Origin: Deltaproteobacteria bacterium
GTDB lineage: Bacteria > Desulfobacterota > Dissulfuribacteria > Dissulfuribacterales > UBA3076
Direction: 5' to 3'
Assembly: GCA_003194485.1 (NCBI GenBank)
Contig: PQXD01000003.1
Coordinates: forward strand, 33,067-97,066
Length of the DNA stretch: 64,000 bases
In this document: one piece after another, positions 4,564-63,833 of the stretch
Layout: each line of letters opens with the position of its first letter
How positions within the stretch are numbered: position 1 is the stretch's first letter
The notes under the pieces: generated by a model
What the model saw: the letters and a program-made list of their open reading frames with translations, nothing else
Database searches by the model: none
Told to the model about the DNA's origin: nothing
Position numbers and translations under genes: made by a program

Positions 4564-4600
4564 GTTCTAAGCTGAGACCTGATTAAGAAGGGATTGAGAC
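4564..4600 (+). repeat. solitary CRISPR-type direct repeat, copy 2
   Basis: GTTCTAAGCTGAGACCTGATTAAGAAGGGATTGAGAC ends in ATTGAGAC, a typical 8-nt crRNA 5'-tag sequence. It lies directly upstream of the mazEF promoter. Confidence 0.5.
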
Positions 4601-4638
4601 TGCTTGGCAGATGTGAAAAATACATTGATTTTTTACGC

Positions 4639-5292: not shown

Positions 5293-5486
5293 CCTTCCTT
5301 TTATCTTTTCTGAAACCCGTCTATCCTTCAACCCCCTGAATCAAATGTGGCACTGATCACTTCTCATGCCGGACAGGATTTAAGGGATTTTGTTTGTTGT
5401 CGACCCCGCCCCTGCCACTTTTGCTGTATCTAAGGAGAGGTTCTTCCCCTAAAGAGAGGAATCGGGCTTTTTGCCTTTCTCAGGGA

Positions 5487-5541
5487 GTACGTCTACGTGC
5501 CCTTCGCCTTGCATCTTCGGCAAACTTGGCTGCTGCATAAT
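5487..5541. repeat. half-copy of the 134-bp palindromic element found at 38109-38242
   Basis: GTACGTCTACGTGCCCTTCGCCTTGCATCTTCGGCAAACTTGGCTGCTGCATAAT aligns with 38178-38232 with only a few mismatches or indels. The left arm is absent here. Confidence 0.7.
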
Positions 5542-7524: not shown

Positions 7525-7608
7525 TTGAAACTTGAAATTAGAAATTAGAACGAAACAAAAGCATGAAGGCCAAATTTCCAATTTCTATTTTCCAATTTCC
7601 AATCTCAA
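7525..7608. repeat. hairpin element built from inverted heptamer arrays (GAAATTA/GGAAATT)
   Basis: The left arm is TTGAAACTTGAAATTAGAAATTAGAA and the right arm is AATTTCCAATTTCTATTTTCCAATTTCCAATCTCAA. The loop GAAACAAAAGCATGAAGGCC is shared with the element at 35010-35095. Confidence 0.8.
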
Positions 7609-7719
7609 CCTTCCGTGAACGTTTACTCTGTCTATGTGCAGCACACAGGCGGTCCATGAAATTGAAACAGCACCGCAAATGAGGTATTATCAACAAAAGA
7701 TTGCGGTTATCTTGGTAAC

Positions 7720-12677: not shown

Positions 12678-13077
12678 GTAAATATTCGGTGAACCCGTTA
12701 TATCCTGCCTTGAAGCGGTTACCTTTTTCCGGGTTTCAAAGCTCACTCATCGCGGACCGGAGAGGCAGTGCAATCCGGCCCGCGATCGAAACCCTGCAAA
12801 AGGCAAACCGCTCCTGCGGCAGGGCGCGGATGGCAACCGTTCACAGGAAGGGGATATTTCTTTGAACAGTTTATAACGGAAGCCCCCGTAGTTTTCTCGG
12901 CTTTTGCTGTGGGGGAAACTGCATCGCCTTAAGCGCAGCGTAGGGCGAATGCAGAGGGGGCAGGACATCCCCCATGTCAAAAGCCTTAAGAAAACAAGGG
13001 GCTGAAGTGTGAAGTGAAAAGAAATATCCCCTGCCAGTGAACGGTTACGTAGGGTCACGGGTTCAGCGAATATTTAC
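12678..13077 (+). mobile_element. MITE copy A (400 bp, full modular form)
   Basis: The TIRs are GTAAATATTCGGTGAACCCGT and the reverse complement GTAAATATTCGCTGAACCCGT. An exact 8-bp direct duplication TTCAAAAT flanks it at 12670-12677 and 13078-13085. Confidence 0.85.
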
Positions 13078-13167
13078 TTCAAAATTCAACATTATCTATA
13101 AAAAAATATACATCTGGAATATTTTGAGCGAAATCCCGTTCCAGGACCCTTTACAGTGTAATCTTTA

Positions 13168-13965
13168 ATGTTCAATAATCTCATCTCATATATACCAATA
13201 ATTCGATGGCAGGATGTAGTAGACATTTTAGTGGTCTCCTACATCATATACCGTGTCATCCTTCTTATCAGAGGGACACGGGCTGTACAGATGGCGGCAG
13301 GGCTGGCTGTTATTATAGTGATTTACTTTGCAGCCGGAGAGTTGAAACTCTTCACCCTGCACTGGCTGCTGGGAACCGTCCTTAGTTCCCTGTTTCTACT
13401 CATCATTATAATATTTCAGGACGATATCCGAAGAGCGCTGGCCCAGATGGGCCAGACACCTTTCCCGAAGTTCCGGGTCAAGACCTTTCAGGCCCTTGAA
13501 GAGATTGCAAAGGCAGTCTCTACTTTAATAAAGAGCCGTACAGGTGCCTTGATAGTACTTGAGAGGGATGTAGGCCTAAACGACTATCTTGAATCAGGAG
13601 TGGTAATTGACGGGCAGGTAACTCGTGCCTTGCTCTGCACAATATTTGACAAGGGATCCCGGTTGCATGACGGCGCAGTGATTATCCAGAAAGGCAGGCT
13701 TTCAGTGGCTGGGTGCGTGCTGCCCTTGAGCATGAATCCGAACATCAGTAAGCGCCTGGGCACAAGACACAGGGCGGCCATAGGCATAACCGAGCAAACT
13801 GATGCTGTGGCAGTGGTGGTTTCCGAAGAGACCGGCAGTCTCTCTGTGGCCATTGCCGGGAAAATCACCAGAGACATAGATCCCGATACGCTCAGACGTA
13901 TCCTGCATAACACCTTTGCAGGTGAAGAGACTGAAAAACCATGGTGGCGAAGGAGGATAGCTTAG
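13168..13965 (+). CDS. cdaA: diadenylate cyclase CdaA (c-di-AMP synthase)
   Basis: Three N-terminal TM helices and a DAC domain with LHDGAVII and GTRHRAA motifs. Confidence 0.9.
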   Translation: MFNNLISYIPIIRWQDVVDILVVSYIIYRVILLIRGTRAVQMAAGLAVIIVIYFAAGELKLFTLHWLLGTVLSSLFLLIIIIFQDDIRRALAQMGQTPFPKFRVKTFQALEEIAKAVSTLIKSRTGALIVLERDVGLNDYLESGVVIDGQVTRALLCTIFDKGSRLHDGAVIIQKGRLSVAGCVLPLSMNPNISKRLGTRHRAAIGITEQTDAVAVVVSEETGSLSVAIAGKITRDIDPDTLRRILHNTFAGEETEKPWWRRRIA

Positions 13966-13968
13966 TCT

Positions 13969-14901
13969 GTGCACCGGCGAGGTCTTTTTCGTAAAGATTG
14001 GGTCCCCAAGCTCCTCTCATTGGCATTTGCTTTGCTGCTTTGGTTCTTTGTGGTTGGAGGGGAAAAGGCCGAGGTAAGCGTCTCCATTCCGCTTGAAGTA
14101 GTAAACATACCCGCAGGCCTGGTAATAGCAAACGATATTCCTTCCAATATTAATGTGAGGGTCTATGGCCCCCGCAGCCTGATTCGTACCATGGCTGCCA
14201 AGGGTATTTTGAAGGTAATTGATCTTAAAGACGCAACACCGGGCAAAATCACTGTCCATATATCACCCGATAGCCTTTCTTTGCCCGGTGCGGTCAGGGC
14301 GCTCAGGATACAGCCCAGCAATGTTGAAATAATGCTGGAGCCTCTCGTGTTAAGTGATTTTCCAGTAAAACCGGTTCTAAAAGGTACGGCTGCCAAATAT
14401 TACAAAGTGCTGGACGCGTATGTAACCCCTCCGAGGGTAGTCCTTTCAGGGCCTGAAAGTGTAATAAAGGCCATGAAAGAAGTAAAGACATTCCCAGTGG
14501 ATATTGAAGGGGCTTCGGATGAGATTACCAGGAAGGTAGGCCTGGATCTTCAGGGACTTAATGTGTCGCTCGAAGAAAAGGCAACATATAAAGTCACTGT
14601 ACGTATAGTGCCTGTCCATGGGATAAGGCGCATCACTCATATACCGGTGTACATTGAAAACAACGAAGCAGGCGCTTCATGGTGGCCCAGAATAGTAAGT
14701 GTGACTTTACGGGGATCCTTACTGGATCTCAGAGAAATCGAGGCCAAAGATATACATGTAAGGATTTCGATAAAGGGTCTTGGGCCCGGCATCCACTCGT
14801 TGGAGCCTGAATGCATTGTCCCTGAAGGATTCACATTAATGGAAATAACGCCTCGAAATATCAAAGTGAATATTCCCAAGGGCTCGCAAATAAATAAGTG
14901 A
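13969..14901 (+). CDS. cdaR: YbbR-domain CdaA regulator CdaR
   Basis: N-terminal TM anchor, repeated YbbR-like beta modules, and conserved position between cdaA and glmM. Confidence 0.75.
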   Translation: MHRRGLFRKDWVPKLLSLAFALLLWFFVVGGEKAEVSVSIPLEVVNIPAGLVIANDIPSNINVRVYGPRSLIRTMAAKGILKVIDLKDATPGKITVHISPDSLSLPGAVRALRIQPSNVEIMLEPLVLSDFPVKPVLKGTAAKYYKVLDAYVTPPRVVLSGPESVIKAMKEVKTFPVDIEGASDEITRKVGLDLQGLNVSLEEKATYKVTVRIVPVHGIRRITHIPVYIENNEAGASWWPRIVSVTLRGSLLDLREIEAKDIHVRISIKGLGPGIHSLEPECIVPEGFTLMEITPRNIKVNIPKGSQINK

Positions 14902-14907
14902 AATGTA

Positions 14908-14949
14908 AACCGCTTCAAGGCAGGATATAACGGGTCACCGAATATTTAC
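14908..14949. mobile_element. MITE terminal fragment or footprint (42 bp)
   Basis: AACCGCTTCAAGGCAGGATATAACGGGTCACCGAATATTTAC equals the module-1 terminus of the MITE. It is preceded by GTAAA. The flanks AGTGAAAT and TGTTAAAT match at 6 of 8 positions. Confidence 0.7.
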
Positions 14950-33538: not shown

Positions 33539-33934
33539 GTAAATATTCTTATGAACCCGTCCGTGGTCCACTGCGCAGACCGTTCACTGGCAGGGGATAT
33601 TTCTTTTCACTTAACACTTCAGCCCCTTGTTTTCTTAAGGCTTTTGACATGGGGGAGTCTTGCCCCCTCCCCGTTCTCCTTCGCTGCGCTCAGGAGCCGG
33701 GGTTTCCCCCACAGCAAAAGCCAAGAAAACTACGGGGGCTTCCGTTAAACTGTTCAAAGAAATATCCCCTTCCCGTGAACGGTTGCCATCCGTGCCCTGC
33801 CGCAGGAGCGGTTTGCCTTTTGCAGGGTTTCGATCGCGGGCCAAATTGCACTGCCCCTTTCGGTCTGCAATGAGTGAGCTTTGAAACCCGGAAAAAGGTA
33901 ACCGCTTCAAGGCAGGATATATTAGAATATTTAC
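33539..33934 (-). mobile_element. MITE copy B (396 bp, inverted relative to A and C)
   Basis: Near-identical to copy C across module 1 and the hairpin module. The flanks AGAGAATT and GAAGAATC are only partly similar. Confidence 0.85.
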
Positions 33935-33948
33935 GAAGAATCTTTCGG

Positions 33949-34593
33949 TCAGCCTGTAACATCTCTGATATCTTTAGGGCTGATAGCCCCCTCCCGTATA
34001 ATTTCAGGAGGATCAATACTTACATCTATGATCGTGGATGGAGGCCCTCCGGATACAGGACCCCCATCCAGTATATAGTCAGGGGGTGTAGACCGTAATT
34101 GATCCGCAACTTCCTCGGCTTTACAGGCGGCAGGGTGTCCTGAGAGGTTTGCACTGGTAGCGGTCACGGGGTTTCCCAGGATTGTCACCAGTGAATGTGC
34201 CCATGGATGGCTGGAAATCCTTACACCTACCTTGCCTGTATCCGCACAGAGCGGCCATGGCAGCCCGGGTCTGGCCGGTAAAAGCAGGGTCAAGGGGCCC
34301 GGCCAGAGACGCTCCATCAAGGCAACCGCTGCCGGCGGAACCCGGCTGGCCAGATGGATGAGATCCGAGGTATCTGAAATGAGGACCAAGAGCGGCTTGT
34401 GTCTCGGCCTTTTTTTGATTACATATATTCGTTCAAGGGCTTCTGTTTGAATTATTGAGGCCCCAAGCCCATAGCTCGTTTCGGTGGGAAAGGCTACTAC
34501 TCCGCCCCTCTTAATTATATCCGCAGCCAGCCGGATCAATATGCGGTCAGGTGACTGTACCATATCGTAATTAAAAAACAAGTAAGCGCTCAC
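33949..34593 (-). CDS. tsaC: L-threonylcarbamoyladenylate synthase (TsaC/YrdC/Sua5 family)
   Basis: YrdC-domain motif GGVVAFPTETSYGLGA. The true start is probably the ATG at 34563 (MVQSPDRIL...). The GTG at 34593 lies inside the MITE target duplication. Confidence 0.85.
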   Translation of the reverse strand: MSAYLFFNYDMVQSPDRILIRLAADIIKRGGVVAFPTETSYGLGASIIQTEALERIYVIKKRPRHKPLLVLISDTSDLIHLASRVPPAAVALMERLWPGPLTLLLPARPGLPWPLCADTGKVGVRISSHPWAHSLVTILGNPVTATSANLSGHPAACKAEEVADQLRSTPPDYILDGGPVSGGPPSTIIDVSIDPPEIIREGAISPKDIRDVTG

Positions 34594-34595
34594 GG

Positions 34596-34996
34596 GTAAA
34601 TATTCTTATGAACCCGTTATATCCTGCCTTGAAGCGGTTACCTTTTTCCGGGCTTCAAAGCTCACTCATCGCAGACCGGAGATGCGGTGCAATCCGGTCC
34701 GCGATCGAAACCCTGCAAAAGGCAAACCGCTCCTGCGGCAGGGGGCACAGATGGCAACCGTTCACGGGCAGGGGATATTTCTTTGAACAGTTTAACGGAA
34801 GCCCCCGTAGTTTTCTTGGCTTTTGCTGTGGGGGAAACCCCGGCTCCTGAGCGCAGCGAAGGAGAACGGGGAGGGGGCAAGACTCCCCCATGTCAAAAGC
34901 CTTAAGAAAACAAGGGGCTGAAGTGTTAAGTGAAAAGAAATATCCCCTGCCAGTGAACGGTCTGCGGAATGGACCACGGGTTCACCGGATATTTAC
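34596..34996 (+). mobile_element. MITE copy C (401 bp)
   Basis: The TIRs are GTAAATATTCTTATGAACCCGT and the reverse complement GTAAATATCCGGTGAACCCGT. An exact 8-bp duplication GCTCACGG flanks it at 34588-34595 and 34997-35004. Confidence 0.88.
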
Positions 34997-35009
34997 GCTC
35001 ACGGAACGT

Positions 35010-35095
35010 TGGAACTGGAAAATGGGAATTGGGAATTTGGCCTTTACGCTTTTGTTTCATCTCTGCCGAATTTCTAATTTCCAATCTCAAGTTCC
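35010..35095. repeat. heptamer-array hairpin element overlapping the purD-purE stop
   Basis: The arms GGAACTGGAAAATGGGAATTGGGAATTTGG and CGAATTTCTAATTTCCAATCTCAAGTTCC pair. The loop is homologous to that at 7551-7572. The last codons ELEIGN* of purD-purE lie in the right arm. Confidence 0.8.
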
Positions 35096-36882
35096 TCTAT
35101 CTCTTTTGCCTGGGCCTCTCTGTATTCCTTCAATTTCCTAGCAAGGTCCCGGTCTTCCAACGCCAGGATCTGAAGTGCCAACAAGGCGGCATTTTTTGCT
35201 CCGGCTTCTCCTATTGCCATGGTTGCAACCGGAACGCCGGGCGGCATCTGGGCAGTGGAAAGCAGGGCATCAATTCCGTTCAGTGCCGAATTGCCTACCG
35301 GCACCCCTATCACCGGAAGGATCGTATTCGCTGCCAGGGTGCCGGCCAGGTGCGCGGCCATTCCGGCGCCGGCAATCAGGACCTTTATCCCTCTGGCCTC
35401 TGCCTCCCCGGCGTATGACGCGGTAAGCCCGGGGGAACGATGGGCCGAGGCAACCCTCAACTCACAGGCTATGCCAAACTCGTTCAGAATATCCCTGGCC
35501 GCTTCCATAACCTCTTTGTCACTGAGACTTCCCATGACAATGCCCACCTTGGCGGTGCTGCCGGTATGCCGGTTTCCCGGCATACCGGCAGCACCGGACG
35601 TGTGTCTGAGAGCCTTTTGGCCGATATCCCTTCTATAGTGCATCCCCTCCCAGGAGATCTGTCCAACTGCTTCATATGCAAGGTCTATCGCCTCTGAAAT
35701 AGTATTCCCGAGTGCCGTAACCCCCAGGACCCTTCCGCCGGATGTGACGAATCGATCTCCATCCTTGGCAGTCCCTGCGTGAAAAACCATCACGTCTTGC
35801 ATCTCAGCCACTTTTTCCAGCCCGTGAATAACCTTGCCTGTCTCGTAATTTCCAGGATAGCCTCCGGAGGCCATGACAACGCAGACGGCAGTCCTTGGAT
35901 CCCACTCAAGTTTTATTTCATTCAGCCTGCCTTCAAGTGCTGCCTCAAATATCTCCATCAGGTCAGTGCGGAGTCTCATCAGGATCGGCTGGGCCTCAGG
36001 GTCACCGAACCGGCAGTTAAATTCCAGGACCTCTGGTATGCCATCTCTAATCATAAGCCCGCCGTAAAGCACTCCCTGATAGGGCCTTTTTGCCTTTGCC
36101 ATGGCTTTCACAGCGGGCCTCATAATGTTTTCCATAATATCGTCAAACAGGGCGCTGCTTACCACTGGTGCCGGAGAGTAGGCACCCATACCGCCGGTAT
36201 TGGGCCCCATGTCATTATCAAATACAGACTTATGATCCTGGGAAGTGGCAAGGGGAAGGACTGTCGTCCCGTCGGTTACAGCCATGAAGGAGGCCTCTTC
36301 TCCGGTGAGAAATTCCTCTACTATAAGTCGATTGCCTGCTTCGCCAAAGACCTTTTTGCGAAGGATAAGATCTATTGCCTCCTCCGCCTCGGCAAGGCTA
36401 TGAGCAAGCAACACCCCTTTGCCGGCCGCCAGCCCGTCCGCCTTTATTGCAACAGGCACTCCAACTATGCTCTTGACATAATCAAATGCGGCATCCGGAT
36501 CGGTAAAGACCTTGTAGGACCCTGTTCGAATGCCTGCTTCAGTCAGCAGTTCCTTTGAAAATACCTTGCTGGCCTCGATCTCAGCAGCCGCTTTAGTGGG
36601 CCCGAATACTGCAAGTCCATGCTTGCTGAAACTGTCTGCCAGGCCCTCAACCAGGGGGGCTTCCGGGCCTACAACCGTCATATCGATACCTTCCTTTTTG
36701 ACAAATGATACAAGGCCGTTAATGTCAGAGACCCTTAAGGATATGCAGGCGGCATGTTGACTTATGCCGGAATTTCCGGGCGCGCAGAATACTCTGGAAA
36801 TTTTGGGACTGGATGCCAGCTTCCAGCAAATGGCGTGTTCACGTCCTCCGGAACCTATTACCAGGATTTTTTTCTGATCCAT
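35074..36882 (-). CDS. purD-purE: fused phosphoribosylamine--glycine ligase (PurD) and N5-CAIR mutase (PurE), 602 aa
   Basis: The N-terminal part of about 425 aa is ATP-grasp PurD (KILVIGSGGREHA...). The C-terminal part of about 160 aa is PurE (VGIVMGSLSDKEVM...SAHRSP...GAGMAAHLAG). The two parts are joined by GAAGMPGNRHTGST. Confidence 0.9.
   Translation of the reverse strand: MDQKKILVIGSGGREHAICWKLASSPKISRVFCAPGNSGISQHAACISLRVSDINGLVSFVKKEGIDMTVVGPEAPLVEGLADSFSKHGLAVFGPTKAAAEIEASKVFSKELLTEAGIRTGSYKVFTDPDAAFDYVKSIVGVPVAIKADGLAAGKGVLLAHSLAEAEEAIDLILRKKVFGEAGNRLIVEEFLTGEEASFMAVTDGTTVLPLATSQDHKSVFDNDMGPNTGGMGAYSPAPVVSSALFDDIMENIMRPAVKAMAKAKRPYQGVLYGGLMIRDGIPEVLEFNCRFGDPEAQPILMRLRTDLMEIFEAALEGRLNEIKLEWDPRTAVCVVMASGGYPGNYETGKVIHGLEKVAEMQDVMVFHAGTAKDGDRFVTSGGRVLGVTALGNTISEAIDLAYEAVGQISWEGMHYRRDIGQKALRHTSGAAGMPGNRHTGSTAKVGIVMGSLSDKEVMEAARDILNEFGIACELRVASAHRSPGLTASYAGEAEARGIKVLIAGAGMAAHLAGTLAANTILPVIGVPVGNSALNGIDALLSTAQMPPGVPVATMAIGEAGAKNAALLALQILALEDRDLARKLKEYREAQAKEIEELEIGN
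35554..35595. repeat. perfect 42-nt palindrome (19-bp arms, 4-nt loop) forming the purD-purE junction
   Basis: In GGTGCTGCCGGTATGCCGG TTTC CCGGCATACCGGCAGCACC the arms are exact reverse complements. The sequence is 14 codons, in frame. Confidence 0.95.
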
Positions 36883-37092: not shown

Positions 37093-37289
37093 GTAAATAT
37101 TCTTATGAATCCGTGGTCCACTGTGGAAGTTGCCATCCGTGACCTGCCGCAGAAGCGGTTTGCCTTTTGCAGGGTTTCGATCGCGGGCCGGATTGCACTG
37201 CCTCTCCGGTCTGCGATGAGTGAGCTTTGAAACCCGGAAAAAGGCAACCGCTCCAAGGCGGGACTATAACGGGTTCTCCGGATATTTAC
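37093..37289 (-). mobile_element. MITE copy D (197 bp, short form lacking the internal hairpin module)
   Basis: Both TIRs and module 1 are present. An exact 8-bp duplication GCTGGAAC flanks it at 37085-37092 and 37290-37297. Confidence 0.88.
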
Positions 37290-38108: not shown

Positions 38109-38242
38109 ATCATCCCGAATTATGCAGCAGCCAATTTTACCAAATCTGCTTTGTTGTCAGGCACTTGAAGTACAAAAGTACGTCTGCGTGCCTTCCGCCT
38201 CGCATCTTTGGCAAACTTGGCTGCTGCATAATTCGGGATCAT
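38109..38242. repeat. 134-bp palindromic element (36-bp arms matching at 33 of 36 positions, 62-nt loop)
   Basis: ATCATCCCGAATTATGCAGCAGCCAATTTTACCAAA (38109-38144) matches the reverse complement of TTTGGCAAACTTGGCTGCTGCATAATTCGGGATCAT (38207-38242). Confidence 0.85.
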
Positions 38243-52628: not shown

Positions 52629-52999
52629 GTAAACCGATTACAGGGTGCTTCTTTTTCCAACATGCTCTCGCCCCTTGTTTTCTGAGGCTTTTGCAGCCCG
52701 GGACCCTCCCCGTTCTCCTTCGCTGCGCTCCGGAGCCGGGGTATCCAGTTCTGCAAAAGCCAAAAAAACTACAAGGGCTAACGCAAATCGTTTCCAAAAG
52801 AAGCACCCTGTAATCGGTTTAAGTCCATTGTGCTTCGGAGTTGCCATCAGCACCCTGCCGCAGGAGCGGTTTGCCTTTTGCAGGGTTTCAACCGCGGGCC
52901 GGATTGCACTGCCTCTCCGGTCCGCGATGAGTGAGCTTTGAAACCCTGAAAAAGGTAACCGCTTCAAGGCAGGATATAACAGGTTCACCGAATATTTAC
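52629..52999 (-). mobile_element. MITE copy E (variant hairpin arms; left terminus divergent or truncated)
   Basis: Module 1 and the right TIR (reverse complement GTAAATATTCGGTGAACC) are conserved. The hairpin arms are replaced by AAACCGATTACAGGGTGCTTCTTTT / AAAAGAAGCACCCTGTAATCGGTTT. No target duplication is seen. Confidence 0.75.
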
Positions 53000-55571: not shown

Positions 55572-56558
55572 CTAATTCCTGGTTTCATCTCTGCCAAATT
55601 TCTGATTTCCAACTTCAAGTTTCAAGGTATTAAGCCCTTGCATAATCCGGGCATTTATATCCAGGGCAAGCTTGAGCGCCTTCCTTCCCGCCTCTCCTGT
55701 AACTTTGGGTTTTTCAAGGCCCTGCACTGCTCTTACGAATGACACGAGTTCATCATAGAGCATGTCTGTCCCCTCGTGGGTCTTGAATTCAGGTCTGATG
55801 GCAGCCATTGGGCCTGCGCTTAAGTCTCTGGTAACAATCAGGCTCTTGCGCTCCGCGCAATCCGCAGATATATATGCCCCTGGCTGAAATACCCTGATTC
55901 TGCGCATATCCTGGAGAGAAATACGGCTTGCCGTAAGATTTGCAGTGCATCCATTCTCGAAGATGAGCCGCGCGTTTGCAATATCCACCTTTTGAGTAAG
56001 TACCGGCACACCCACTGCCCTTATCTCTTTAAGAGGCGAGCTTACCAGGGCCAGGATTATCTCCAGATCGTGAATCATCAGATCCAGGACCACATCCACG
56101 TCAGTGGCCCTGTCCTTAAATCCGCTCAGCCTGTGGACCTCTATAAAGAGGGGATGCGTCACCTTTGCCTCAAGCACCTTTATGGCAGGATTAAATCGCT
56201 CCAAATGGCCCACCTGGAGTATCAAACCCTTCTCTGCTGCCAGGCCAATGAGCTCATCCGCTTCGTCCACAGTGGCAGAGATGGGCTTTTCAATCATGCA
56301 GTGCACACCATGGGAAAACAGTATCTTGGCAACTTCGTGATGATGAATAGTGGGAACTACCACCGATGCCGCATCGATCCTGCCTATCACCTCATGTATA
56401 TCTGTGCAGGCCCTGGTCCCCGCCTCCTTTGCCACCTCCTGTGCACGCTCAAGAGACAGATCCACGACTCCAACCAGATCCACTCCCTCCATCTGCGCAT
56501 ACTTCTGTGCATGAAATCGCCCCAGATATCCCGCTCCTATAACCGCTGTCCGAATCAA
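55572..56558 (-). CDS. Gfo/Idh/MocA-family NAD(P)-dependent oxidoreductase in the lpx cluster
   Basis: Rossmann N-terminus IRTAVIGAGYLGRFHA and the EKP motif CMIEKP. The last 17 codons lie in a half-copy of the heptamer hairpin element. Confidence 0.8.
   Translation of the reverse strand: MIRTAVIGAGYLGRFHAQKYAQMEGVDLVGVVDLSLERAQEVAKEAGTRACTDIHEVIGRIDAASVVVPTIHHHEVAKILFSHGVHCMIEKPISATVDEADELIGLAAEKGLILQVGHLERFNPAIKVLEAKVTHPLFIEVHRLSGFKDRATDVDVVLDLMIHDLEIILALVSSPLKEIRAVGVPVLTQKVDIANARLIFENGCTANLTASRISLQDMRRIRVFQPGAYISADCAERKSLIVTRDLSAGPMAAIRPEFKTHEGTDMLYDELVSFVRAVQGLEKPKVTGEAGRKALKLALDINARIMQGLNTLKLEVGNQKFGRDETRN
55582..55627. repeat. half-copy of the heptamer-array hairpin element, used as coding 3' end
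   Basis: GTTTCATCTCTGCCAAATTTCTGATTTCCAACTTCAAGTTTC matches 35054-35095 at 38 of 42 positions. Confidence 0.8.
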
Positions 56559-58200: not shown

Positions 58201-58204
58201 TATC

Positions 58205-58290
58205 GAAACTGGAAATTAGAAATTAGAAATTAGGTAATGAATCTACATCTTTGTGTTTTCCCCAATTTCCAATTTCCAGTTTCCAGTTTC
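58205..58290. repeat. heptamer-array hairpin element (lpxA-fabZ spacer)
   Basis: GAAACTGGAAATTAGAAATTAGAAATTAGG pairs with CCCCAATTTCCAATTTCCAGTTTCCAGTTTC. Confidence 0.8.
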
Positions 58291-58353
58291 ACTGCAAAAT
58301 ACAAGATCAACAAAGTGTAAACTACTTTTGACTCGCCGTGAAGGATGCCGAAT

Positions 58354-63407: not shown

Positions 63408-63490
63408 GTTAATAAAATAAAACAGGTCTAAAATGGGCTCCAGTGATAACAAATAAGACTATCTCAATCAAGTAAAACATATAATTATAA

Positions 63491-63748
63491 CTATTGAGTT
63501 AGCTCCGTTTCGATATATAGTCTTTGATTATTGGATAATCATCCCTTGTCCCTCCAATGCTCTCATCCCTTGTTTTCTGAGGCTTTTGCAGCATGGGACC
63601 CTCCCTGCTCTCCTCCGCTGCGCTCCGGAGCCAGGGTTTCCCATACTGCAAAAGCCAGGAAAACTGCGGGACTTCCGCAAGTCACTCCAAGGGATAATCA
63701 TCCAATAATCCGTTACAATTAGCATATGATGCGGAGCTAACTCAATAG
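63491..63748. repeat. stand-alone copy of the MITE core hairpin (copy F) with its own unrelated outer stems
   Basis: The core CCCTTGTTTTCTGAGGCTTTTGCAG...CCGCTGCGCTCCGGAGCC...CTGCAAAAGCCAGGAAAACTGCGGG is shared with copies A, B, C and E. The outer stem is CTATTGAGTTAGCTCCG / CGGAGCTAACTCAATAG. No TIR or module 1 is present. Confidence 0.75.
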
Positions 63749-63833
63749 TCATAACATATAAATGGATTTTAGTTTGACACCCGGGCTTGCTGCTGTTAAC
63801 CAGAAATCATTACTCAAGGAGGATGCTTTAATT

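Follow-up and report, generated by a model that had tools for sequence, protein, structure and literature searches.

The described systems closest to the element reported here are ERIC/IRU of the enterobacteria and bcr1 of the Bacillus cereus group, which are likewise short, non-coding, multi-copy repeats of intergenic DNA, form an imperfect hairpin over their whole length and are often co-transcribed with adjacent genes. Compensatory changes that preserve the hairpin have been described for bcr1, and orientation-dependent effects on mRNA for ERIC (reviewed in PMC3184786). Among the nested or composite MITEs of other bacteria, Chunjie of Geobacter (178–235 bp) and Nezha of cyanobacteria are, going by their descriptions, also similar in size, intergenic and non-autonomous (Table 1 of PMC3184786), and the host of Chunjie is deltaproteobacterial, as here. 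Integron attC sites, IS200/IS605 ends and REP/RAYT sequences share with our element an imperfect hairpin, greater conservation of structure than of sequence and the retention of extra-helical bases, but differ from it in lacking 8-bp duplications, in their tyrosine or HUH enzymes, in hairpins of 20–130 nt and, for REP, in a GTAG head.

The element studied here lies in a 64-kb stretch of DNA, which we call the window. No sequence relationship to ERIC or bcr1 was detected, and it differs from both in its longer hairpin (~205 bp), its GTAA termini, its duplications (8 bp, against TA in ERIC and 5 bp in bcr1), its host, an uncultured Seep-SRB2 deltaproteobacterium, and its nesting, as one hairpin or two, inside a second MITE. 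To our knowledge, nesting with three transposing size classes is undescribed for Chunjie and Nezha.

Copy C of the hairpin (type 1; 34757–34961, plus strand) is an imperfect palindrome over its whole length, ACCGTTCAC...GTGAACGGT. A preliminary description of this DNA had proposed a long imperfect hairpin, and copy C indeed folds as a single rod with an RNA minimum free energy (MFE) of −121 kcal/mol, against −69.5 ± 4.6 for dinucleotide shuffles (z = −11.2). The opposite strand is nearly as stable (−113.4), and the nhmmer score of copy C is 228 bits in sense and 54 in antisense. At its apex, a mini-hairpin GC-GCA-GC (34851–34857, plus strand), with a 2-bp stem and a GCA triloop, tops the apical stem CCCCG-G-CTCC/GGAG-AA-CGGGG (34838–34871, plus strand), whose asymmetric G/AA internal loop is conserved. 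The same description had called the hairpin an internal module of a MITE. It is rather a complete, non-autonomous palindromic MITE nested within another, with its own terminal inverted repeats, GTAAC(C/T)G...C(G/A)GTTAC, and its own 8-bp duplications. The reading frames in the hairpin and in its host MITE are spurious, overlapping and broken by indels between copies, and neither element contains a transposase gene. We rejected the idea that the apex is an independent REP-like unit, as the 34-nt apex was never seen outside the hairpin element, and likewise an assignment to the RAYT-mobilised REP/BIME class, which has a 20–40-nt palindrome with a GTAG head and no duplication, versus ~205 bp with 8-bp duplications here.

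By BLAST of the 401-bp composite C, we located six element copies in the window, five of which carry the hairpin (A, B, C, E and F), while D is hairpin-free. Composite C (34596–34996, plus strand; 401 bp) comprises a left end, GTAAATATTC..TGAACCCG, module 1 (34617–34756), the hairpin and a right end; its 8-bp duplication, GCTCACGG, lies at 34588–34595 and 34997–35004. Composite A (12678–13077, plus strand), in the folP–cdaA spacer, has its hairpin at 12836–13045, with an alternative apical-stem haplotype, and the duplication TTCAAAAT. Composite B (33539–33934, minus strand; hairpin 33579–33783), in the mltG–tsaC spacer, has a partly deleted right end and a degraded duplication (5/8). Copy D (37093–37289, minus strand; 197 bp) is a host MITE without hairpin; its 8-bp duplication is GCTGGAAC. 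Hairpin copy E (type 2; 52630–52821, minus strand; 106.5 bits in the covariance model described below) adjoins module 1 at 52841–52999; its basal arms are unlike those of type 1, and a 13-nt one-sided loop is absent. Hairpin copy F (type 3; approximately 63520–63716, minus strand; 108 bits) is solitary, without module 1, and its left terminus has decayed. A solo end fragment of the host MITE, consisting of the terminal repeat and ~23 nt, occurs in the cdaR–glmM spacer (14908–14949, minus strand). The resulting gene order is folP, A, cdaA–cdaR, fragment, glmM; then mltG, B, tsaC, C, purD–purE, D, DUF364; and purB, E, a Gate-domain protein. Every copy is intergenic, among housekeeping genes, and both orientations occur. 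Some copies lie within operons such as folP–cdaA–cdaR–glmM, so their transcription is probable.

Several other features of the window were recorded alongside these copies. A perfect 18-bp inverted repeat, ACTATTGAGTTAGCTCCG/CGGAGCTAACTCAATAGT (63490–63507 and 63732–63749), flanks copy F ~15–20 bp outside its ends, and F may thus be nested in yet another palindromic element. The open reading frame at 35074–36882 (minus strand, 602 aa) carries the purD domains GARS_N, GARS_A and GARS_C followed by a C-terminal purE domain, AIRC, and appears to be a purD–purE fusion. Another short repeat family, AATTTCCAATTTCC-rich, occurs at 35054–35093 and 55582–55621, and also at 7558–7611 and 58249–58288; two of its 40-mers are 90% identical and are located at the 3′ ends of minus-strand genes. 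Direct repeats unrelated to the MITEs were found at 5486–5541 and 38177–38232 (56 nt, 91%) and at 1732–1773 and 4564–4605 (42 nt, 90%). The hairpin model gave weak matches at 58203–58291 (17 bits) and 38110–38240 (16.7 bits).

We collected further copies with a search pattern built on a mid-stem anchor, AGTTTTYYYGGCTTTTGC-N-CAAAAGCC, which fixes the mid-stem GGCTTTTGC/CAAAAGCC and leaves the apical and basal parts free. GTDB representative genomes yielded five loci, all in MAGs labelled 'Deltaproteobacteria', three of them (two MAGs) designated SeepSRB2, and metagenomes yielded 84 stretches, with many copies at contig ends. Viral contigs gave chance matches alone with a loose pattern and zero with specific ones. 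Across the window, Seep-SRB2 MAGs and metagenomes (713 kb), a profile search found 137 non-overlapping hairpin loci, of which 98 were full length and 95 of these distinct. Four metagenome contigs are ~99% identical to the window over 1.8–11.9 kb, so most copies are paralogues from the same population; the copies are related, the many from one population are not independent, and metagenome assembly can make chimeric repeats. The profile scored ~200 bits in sense and ~50 in antisense, which indicates that the polarity of the element is conserved.

The host MITE is 195 bp long and consists of module 1 between GTAAATATTC ends, that is, GTAAATATTC..TGAACCCG with its complement. Both it and the hairpin have inverted termini starting with GTAA and 8-bp target-site duplications, and both are multi-copy in Seep-SRB2 genomes. 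The host family falls into size classes of ~195, 395–400 and 600–608 bp, corresponding to zero, one and two tandem hairpins. Perfect 8/8 duplications flank 28 of 70 end pairs, a further seven match at 7/8, and the perfect duplications differ in sequence from one another, apart from those at insertion sites shared by two samples. The hairpin also occurs without module 1 in other Seep-SRB2 MAGs; a solo copy in L088, with ends GTGATTATTCAC...GTGAATAGTTAC, has the perfect 8-bp duplication AGAATTAA. Where a type-2 hairpin lies inside the host MITE (L094, L118 and L128), the octamer CAGTGGAC stands on both sides of it, and this octamer is single-copy in the hairpin-free host MITE. Taken together, the size classes, the duplicated octamer and the 8/8 duplications establish that nesting occurred and that the composites went on transposing. 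The original duplication of the type-1 hairpin within the host MITE is not recognisable, and no insertion site was found occupied in one sample and empty in another.

The canonical IS66 end is GTAAGCG. The IS66 family, with its ISBst12 group, is characterised by inverted repeats that begin with GTAA and by 8-bp duplications (PMC11946415), and both traits are present in the hairpin and in the host MITE. The ISBst12-group element ISDge4 has an 8-bp duplication and the repeat GTAACTGCTCAGCA (PMC12898284), which resembles the hairpin end GTAACCGTTCAC. By this signature of ends and duplications, which is the link between them, IS66-family insertion sequences are the likely mobilising partner. The 713 kb, a sample biased towards hairpin loci, contained no transposase or autonomous element with these termini. 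As candidates for a parent insertion sequence we considered inverted GTAA/GTGA ends 1–3.5 kb apart, and rejected them, since they enclose ordinary genes (an HDOD protein, a DsrE-like protein and cdaA–cdaR) and not transposases. These inverted pairs of host-MITE ends, at 12678–14949 in the window (cdaA–cdaR), L112 2482–3876 (an HDOD-domain gene), L143 6146–7516 (small DsrE-like ORFs) and L110 865–3289, form a composite-transposon-like arrangement, and their flanking octamers are unmatched.

The preliminary description had argued from the window copies that the stems change while staying paired. In the larger alignments, with a covariance model, this holds: paired changes in 95–127 copies lie far above shuffled and slid controls. 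For the full stem, we took the MFE structure of copy C and the 95 distinct full-length copies. Standard pairs occupy 90.3% of cells, against 40–52% when the structure is slid; 32 of 81 pairs show changes on both sides (shuffled 18.5 ± 2.1, reached in 0/500; slid 10–16), and 226 cells are changed on both sides, versus 86 in shuffles. For the core, covariance model R1 (122 positions, 42 pairs; copy C core 34799–34921, 144.5 bits) gave 127 matches at E<1e-10, 105 of them distinct, with the E-values to be taken as rough. Here standard pairs fill 95.2% of cells (37–56% slid), a figure read with the leaning of such an alignment towards its own structure. Both-side changes affect 17 of the 42 pairs (shuffled 12.8 ± 1.2, with 2/500 reaching this value; slid 2–8) and 225 cells, against 60 when shuffled (0/500), and further pair types number 45 versus 38 (0/500). 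These tests are not tree-aware, and the sequences are related. A frequency-stratified analysis of pairing in a MAFFT alignment was set aside, confounded as it was by register shifts between types and by chimeras, in favour of the covariance-model and close-copy analyses.

Covariation extends over the full length of the stem, with helices affected from the basal arms up to the mini-stem of 2 bp at the apex. In the 105 distinct cores, the outer 5-bp apical helix takes four fully paired haplotypes, CCCCG/CGGGG (56), CCCTG/CAGGG (10), CCGCA/TGCGG (12) and CTGCA/TGCAG (17), and the inner 4-bp helix two, CTCC/GGAG and CGCC/GGCG. The mini-stem GCGCAGC becomes GTGCAAC in five copies, a covarying change of C-G to T-A. 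Further down, GGCTTTTG/CAAAAGCC alternates with GGCCTTTG/CAAAGGCC in the mid-stem, and CTGTGGGGGA/TCCCCCATGTC with CAGCATGGGA/TCCCATGCTGC in the upper mid-stem. None of the haplotypes has lost the asymmetric G/AA (or T/AA) internal loop that separates the two apical helices, and the one-sided loop of ~13 nt likewise persists while its flanking pairs switch. Within the window, the apical stems of A and of B and C are paired in both forms (CTGCATCGCC/GGCGAATGCAG versus CCCCGGCTCC/GGAGAACGGGG), the basal arms of E (TAAACCGATTACAGGGTGCTTCTTTT) are exact mutual complements, and E to F does show C>T with a paired G>A, all as first described. The separate haplotype credited to E, CCCCGTTCTCC/GGAGCCGGGG, is only the reverse complement of that of B and C, E being on the minus strand. 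The apical loop said to be constant is so within the window but varies elsewhere (GTGCAACG, GCGAAGCG, GCACAGCG, GCTCAGCG, GCGTAGCG and GCGCAGCT), and GTGCAACG is itself the compensated C-G>T-A change in the 2-bp mini-stem.

One source of such matched arms could be independent births, in which each sub-family arose as a fresh perfect palindrome through fold-back copying of a related IS end, and the compensation seen between families would be an artefact of that origin. In its favour, types 1, 2 and 3 diverge most strongly in their basal arms, which are near-perfect within a type. Yet the non-palindromic apex, the G/AA loop and the polarity are common to all sub-families, which points to one ancestral hairpin, and single pairs switch in otherwise identical backgrounds, as between CCCCG/CGGGG and CCCTG/CAGGG, CCGCA/TGCGG and CTGCA/TGCAG, or GCGCAGC and GTGCAAC. 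We therefore consider separate origins very improbable.

In a set of 40 copies with ≥93% identity to copy C, the rare stem changes comprise 26 one-sided events and one two-sided; counted by variant type, the 23 one-sided changes are 13 wobble, seven A·C and three transversions. Private changes in copies close to C are thus one-sided, and compensation belongs to the sub-families, that is, to source lineages, and not to inserted copies. Matched arms appear to be kept in the source lineages, and no sign of a discrete RNA emerged. Since the arms double as the terminal inverted repeats of the element, selection for matched ends in duplex DNA predicts identical 'covariation' with no fold needed.

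The reading that we favour, and to which we would give an even chance, is that matched arms are maintained at the level of the element in a nested palindromic MITE. The 205-bp hairpin MITE would once have inserted into the 195-bp host MITE, and the composite would now move as a unit, its termini presumably recognised by an IS66-family-like DDE transposase supplied in trans. Source ('master') copy lineages would keep their arms matched because only well-matched elements would go on producing surviving copies. Such matching might be useful in duplex DNA, where the arms would serve as terminal repeats that are extended or have two-fold symmetry, or it might allow snap-back or cruciform DNA to bring the ends together. 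Inserted copies would then decay through one-sided changes, and a hairpin landing inside an operon would be passively co-transcribed in whichever orientation it had inserted. It is part of the same reading that the hairpin is not a discrete small-RNA gene. Against element-level maintenance stand the lack of a transposase with such ends in the 713 kb, the unrecognisable duplication of the type-1 hairpin and the hints of a strand preference given below; nor would a transposase normally require arms that match over ~100 bp as far as the dyad. The origin of many copies in one population and the mid-stem fixed by the search pattern count against it as well.

Neutral concerted evolution, with arms homogenised by mismatch correction in a snap-back or cruciform form, or by arm-to-arm gene conversion or recombination, would also match the arms, and paired changes would then need no selection for a fold. 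In its favour, no strand-specific signature is seen. Interaction between the arms is evident at two loci, L142 5868–6079 (the same locus as L157 839–1050) and L117 3600–3812, where the interior of the hairpin is flipped with respect to module 1, and in three arm-swapped chimeras that join arms of different sub-families (L143 319–527, L151 32–249 and L109 1867–2074). What speaks against homogenisation is that the asymmetries (the G/AA loop, the 13-nt loop and the non-palindromic apex flanks) survive at least five compensated changes 1–4 nt away. Only one of ~24–27 rare stem changes among close copies is two-sided, which argues that in-situ conversion is slow, and a one-sided intermediate, CCGCA/TGCAG, persists in two copies. 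On balance we think concerted evolution rather unlikely as the main cause.

Arm-mismatched forms are rare in the 105 distinct cores, consisting of these three chimeras and the two one-sided intermediates. Further chimeric hairpins were noted at L143 97–307, L150 4919–5131, L151 5242–5454, L146 169–383 and L109 9257–9473. The stems of chimeras are partly mismatched, with MFEs of −67 to −88 versus about −115 kcal/mol, and most are the second hairpin of a 600-bp composite; recombination between tandem hairpins could have produced them, as could errors of metagenome assembly. Inverted interiors occur in three of 61 composites, 57 having the usual orientation, and their junctions have the sequence of copy A, pointing to occasional recombination of the inverted basal arms, ~30 bp long, with each other or to a flip during assembly.

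A function at the RNA level, as a cis-acting mRNA element (a processing or stability site for RNase III or RNase E, of the kind suggested for ERIC and bcr1) or as a MITE-borne small RNA, has more in its favour than covariation with retained asymmetric loops and the precedents of bcr1 and ERIC (PMC3184786). The sense fold is the stabler in 82 of 95 copies, by 7 kcal/mol on average, and the profile distinguishes the strands as given above. At 42 distinct sites, 20 copies are co-directional with their neighbours, nine anti-directional, nine divergent and three convergent, a mild bias, and at 29 of 41 sites the gene downstream runs in the same direction as the hairpin. Stability and downstream-gene orientation together hint at a strand preference, and the copies inside operons are probably transcribed. 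Set against this, there is no excess of G·U over A·C among variant types, with 43:36 overall and 13:7 (p = 0.26) or 12:13 for rare variants. We discarded the sense-strand cell count of 403:224 as RNA evidence, as it reflects a few inherited positions and the bias is absent by variant type. Conservation is no higher in unpaired than in paired columns (entropy 0.40 vs 0.36 bits, p = 0.5), the in-situ changes are one-sided, and copy C is antisense to both adjacent genes. A promoter and terminator scan of copy C found nothing exceeding shuffles; Rfam 15 matched nothing but a tRNA in the whole window at gathering score, and nothing credible at 34560–35030 with E up to 10. An RNA function is in our view doubtful. 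The earlier proposal that the fold itself is maintained, as RNA or single-stranded DNA, is therefore upheld as far as the covariation and the kept asymmetric loops go, but the wobble signature is missing, the loops are no more conserved than the stems, and matching arms could be demanded by a transposase that works on duplex DNA.

Module 1 had been said to behave in the same way as the hairpin. Folded alone, it too gives a long hairpin. Covariation in it is weak and confined to a single pair, which switches from G-C to A-U in 10 of 57 copies; the others are invariant or vary by wobble. With filters off, the hairpin covariance model nonetheless matched module 1, antisense to the hairpin, at 21.8–35.3 bits, matches that are lost under the default filters (12702–12824, minus; 33795–33918, plus; 34621–34743, minus; 37142–37264, plus; 52853–52975, plus). 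The best of these alignments forms 41 of the 42 model pairs canonically; at 24 pairs both bases depart from the hairpin consensus, and a one-sided loop of 13 nt is placed as in the hairpin. The two may be deep paralogues, or module 1 may be only an analogous rod.

A more speculative possibility, which we rate as quite improbable, is that the fold and not the sequence is the substrate, with an IS66-like transposase that makes 8-bp duplications recognising a snap-back single-stranded or cruciform form. If true, this would explain why a stem of ~95 bp, an asymmetric loop and a GNA-type triloop are kept through many compensated changes, and the same might even apply between the hairpin and module 1, in which 41 of the 42 model pairs form and 24 are changed on both sides. 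It would constitute a structure-recognised mode of DDE transposition.

Arms that change in step between sub-families, as they do here, are already known for palindromic bacterial MITEs, and the present case is a well-documented, fairly ordinary one. From a Seep-SRB2 sulfate reducer it adds two MITE families not described before, one nested in the other. Seep-SRB2 is an uncultured syntrophic partner of methane-oxidising archaea. Both the hairpin and the host repeats break metagenome assemblies, in which many copies lie at contig ends. With more than 100 copies in several sub-families, the set is clean and unusually large for asking why palindromic MITEs retain their hairpins. Because matched terminal repeats give the same signal, covariation in a transposon hairpin is not readable as evidence for an RNA gene.
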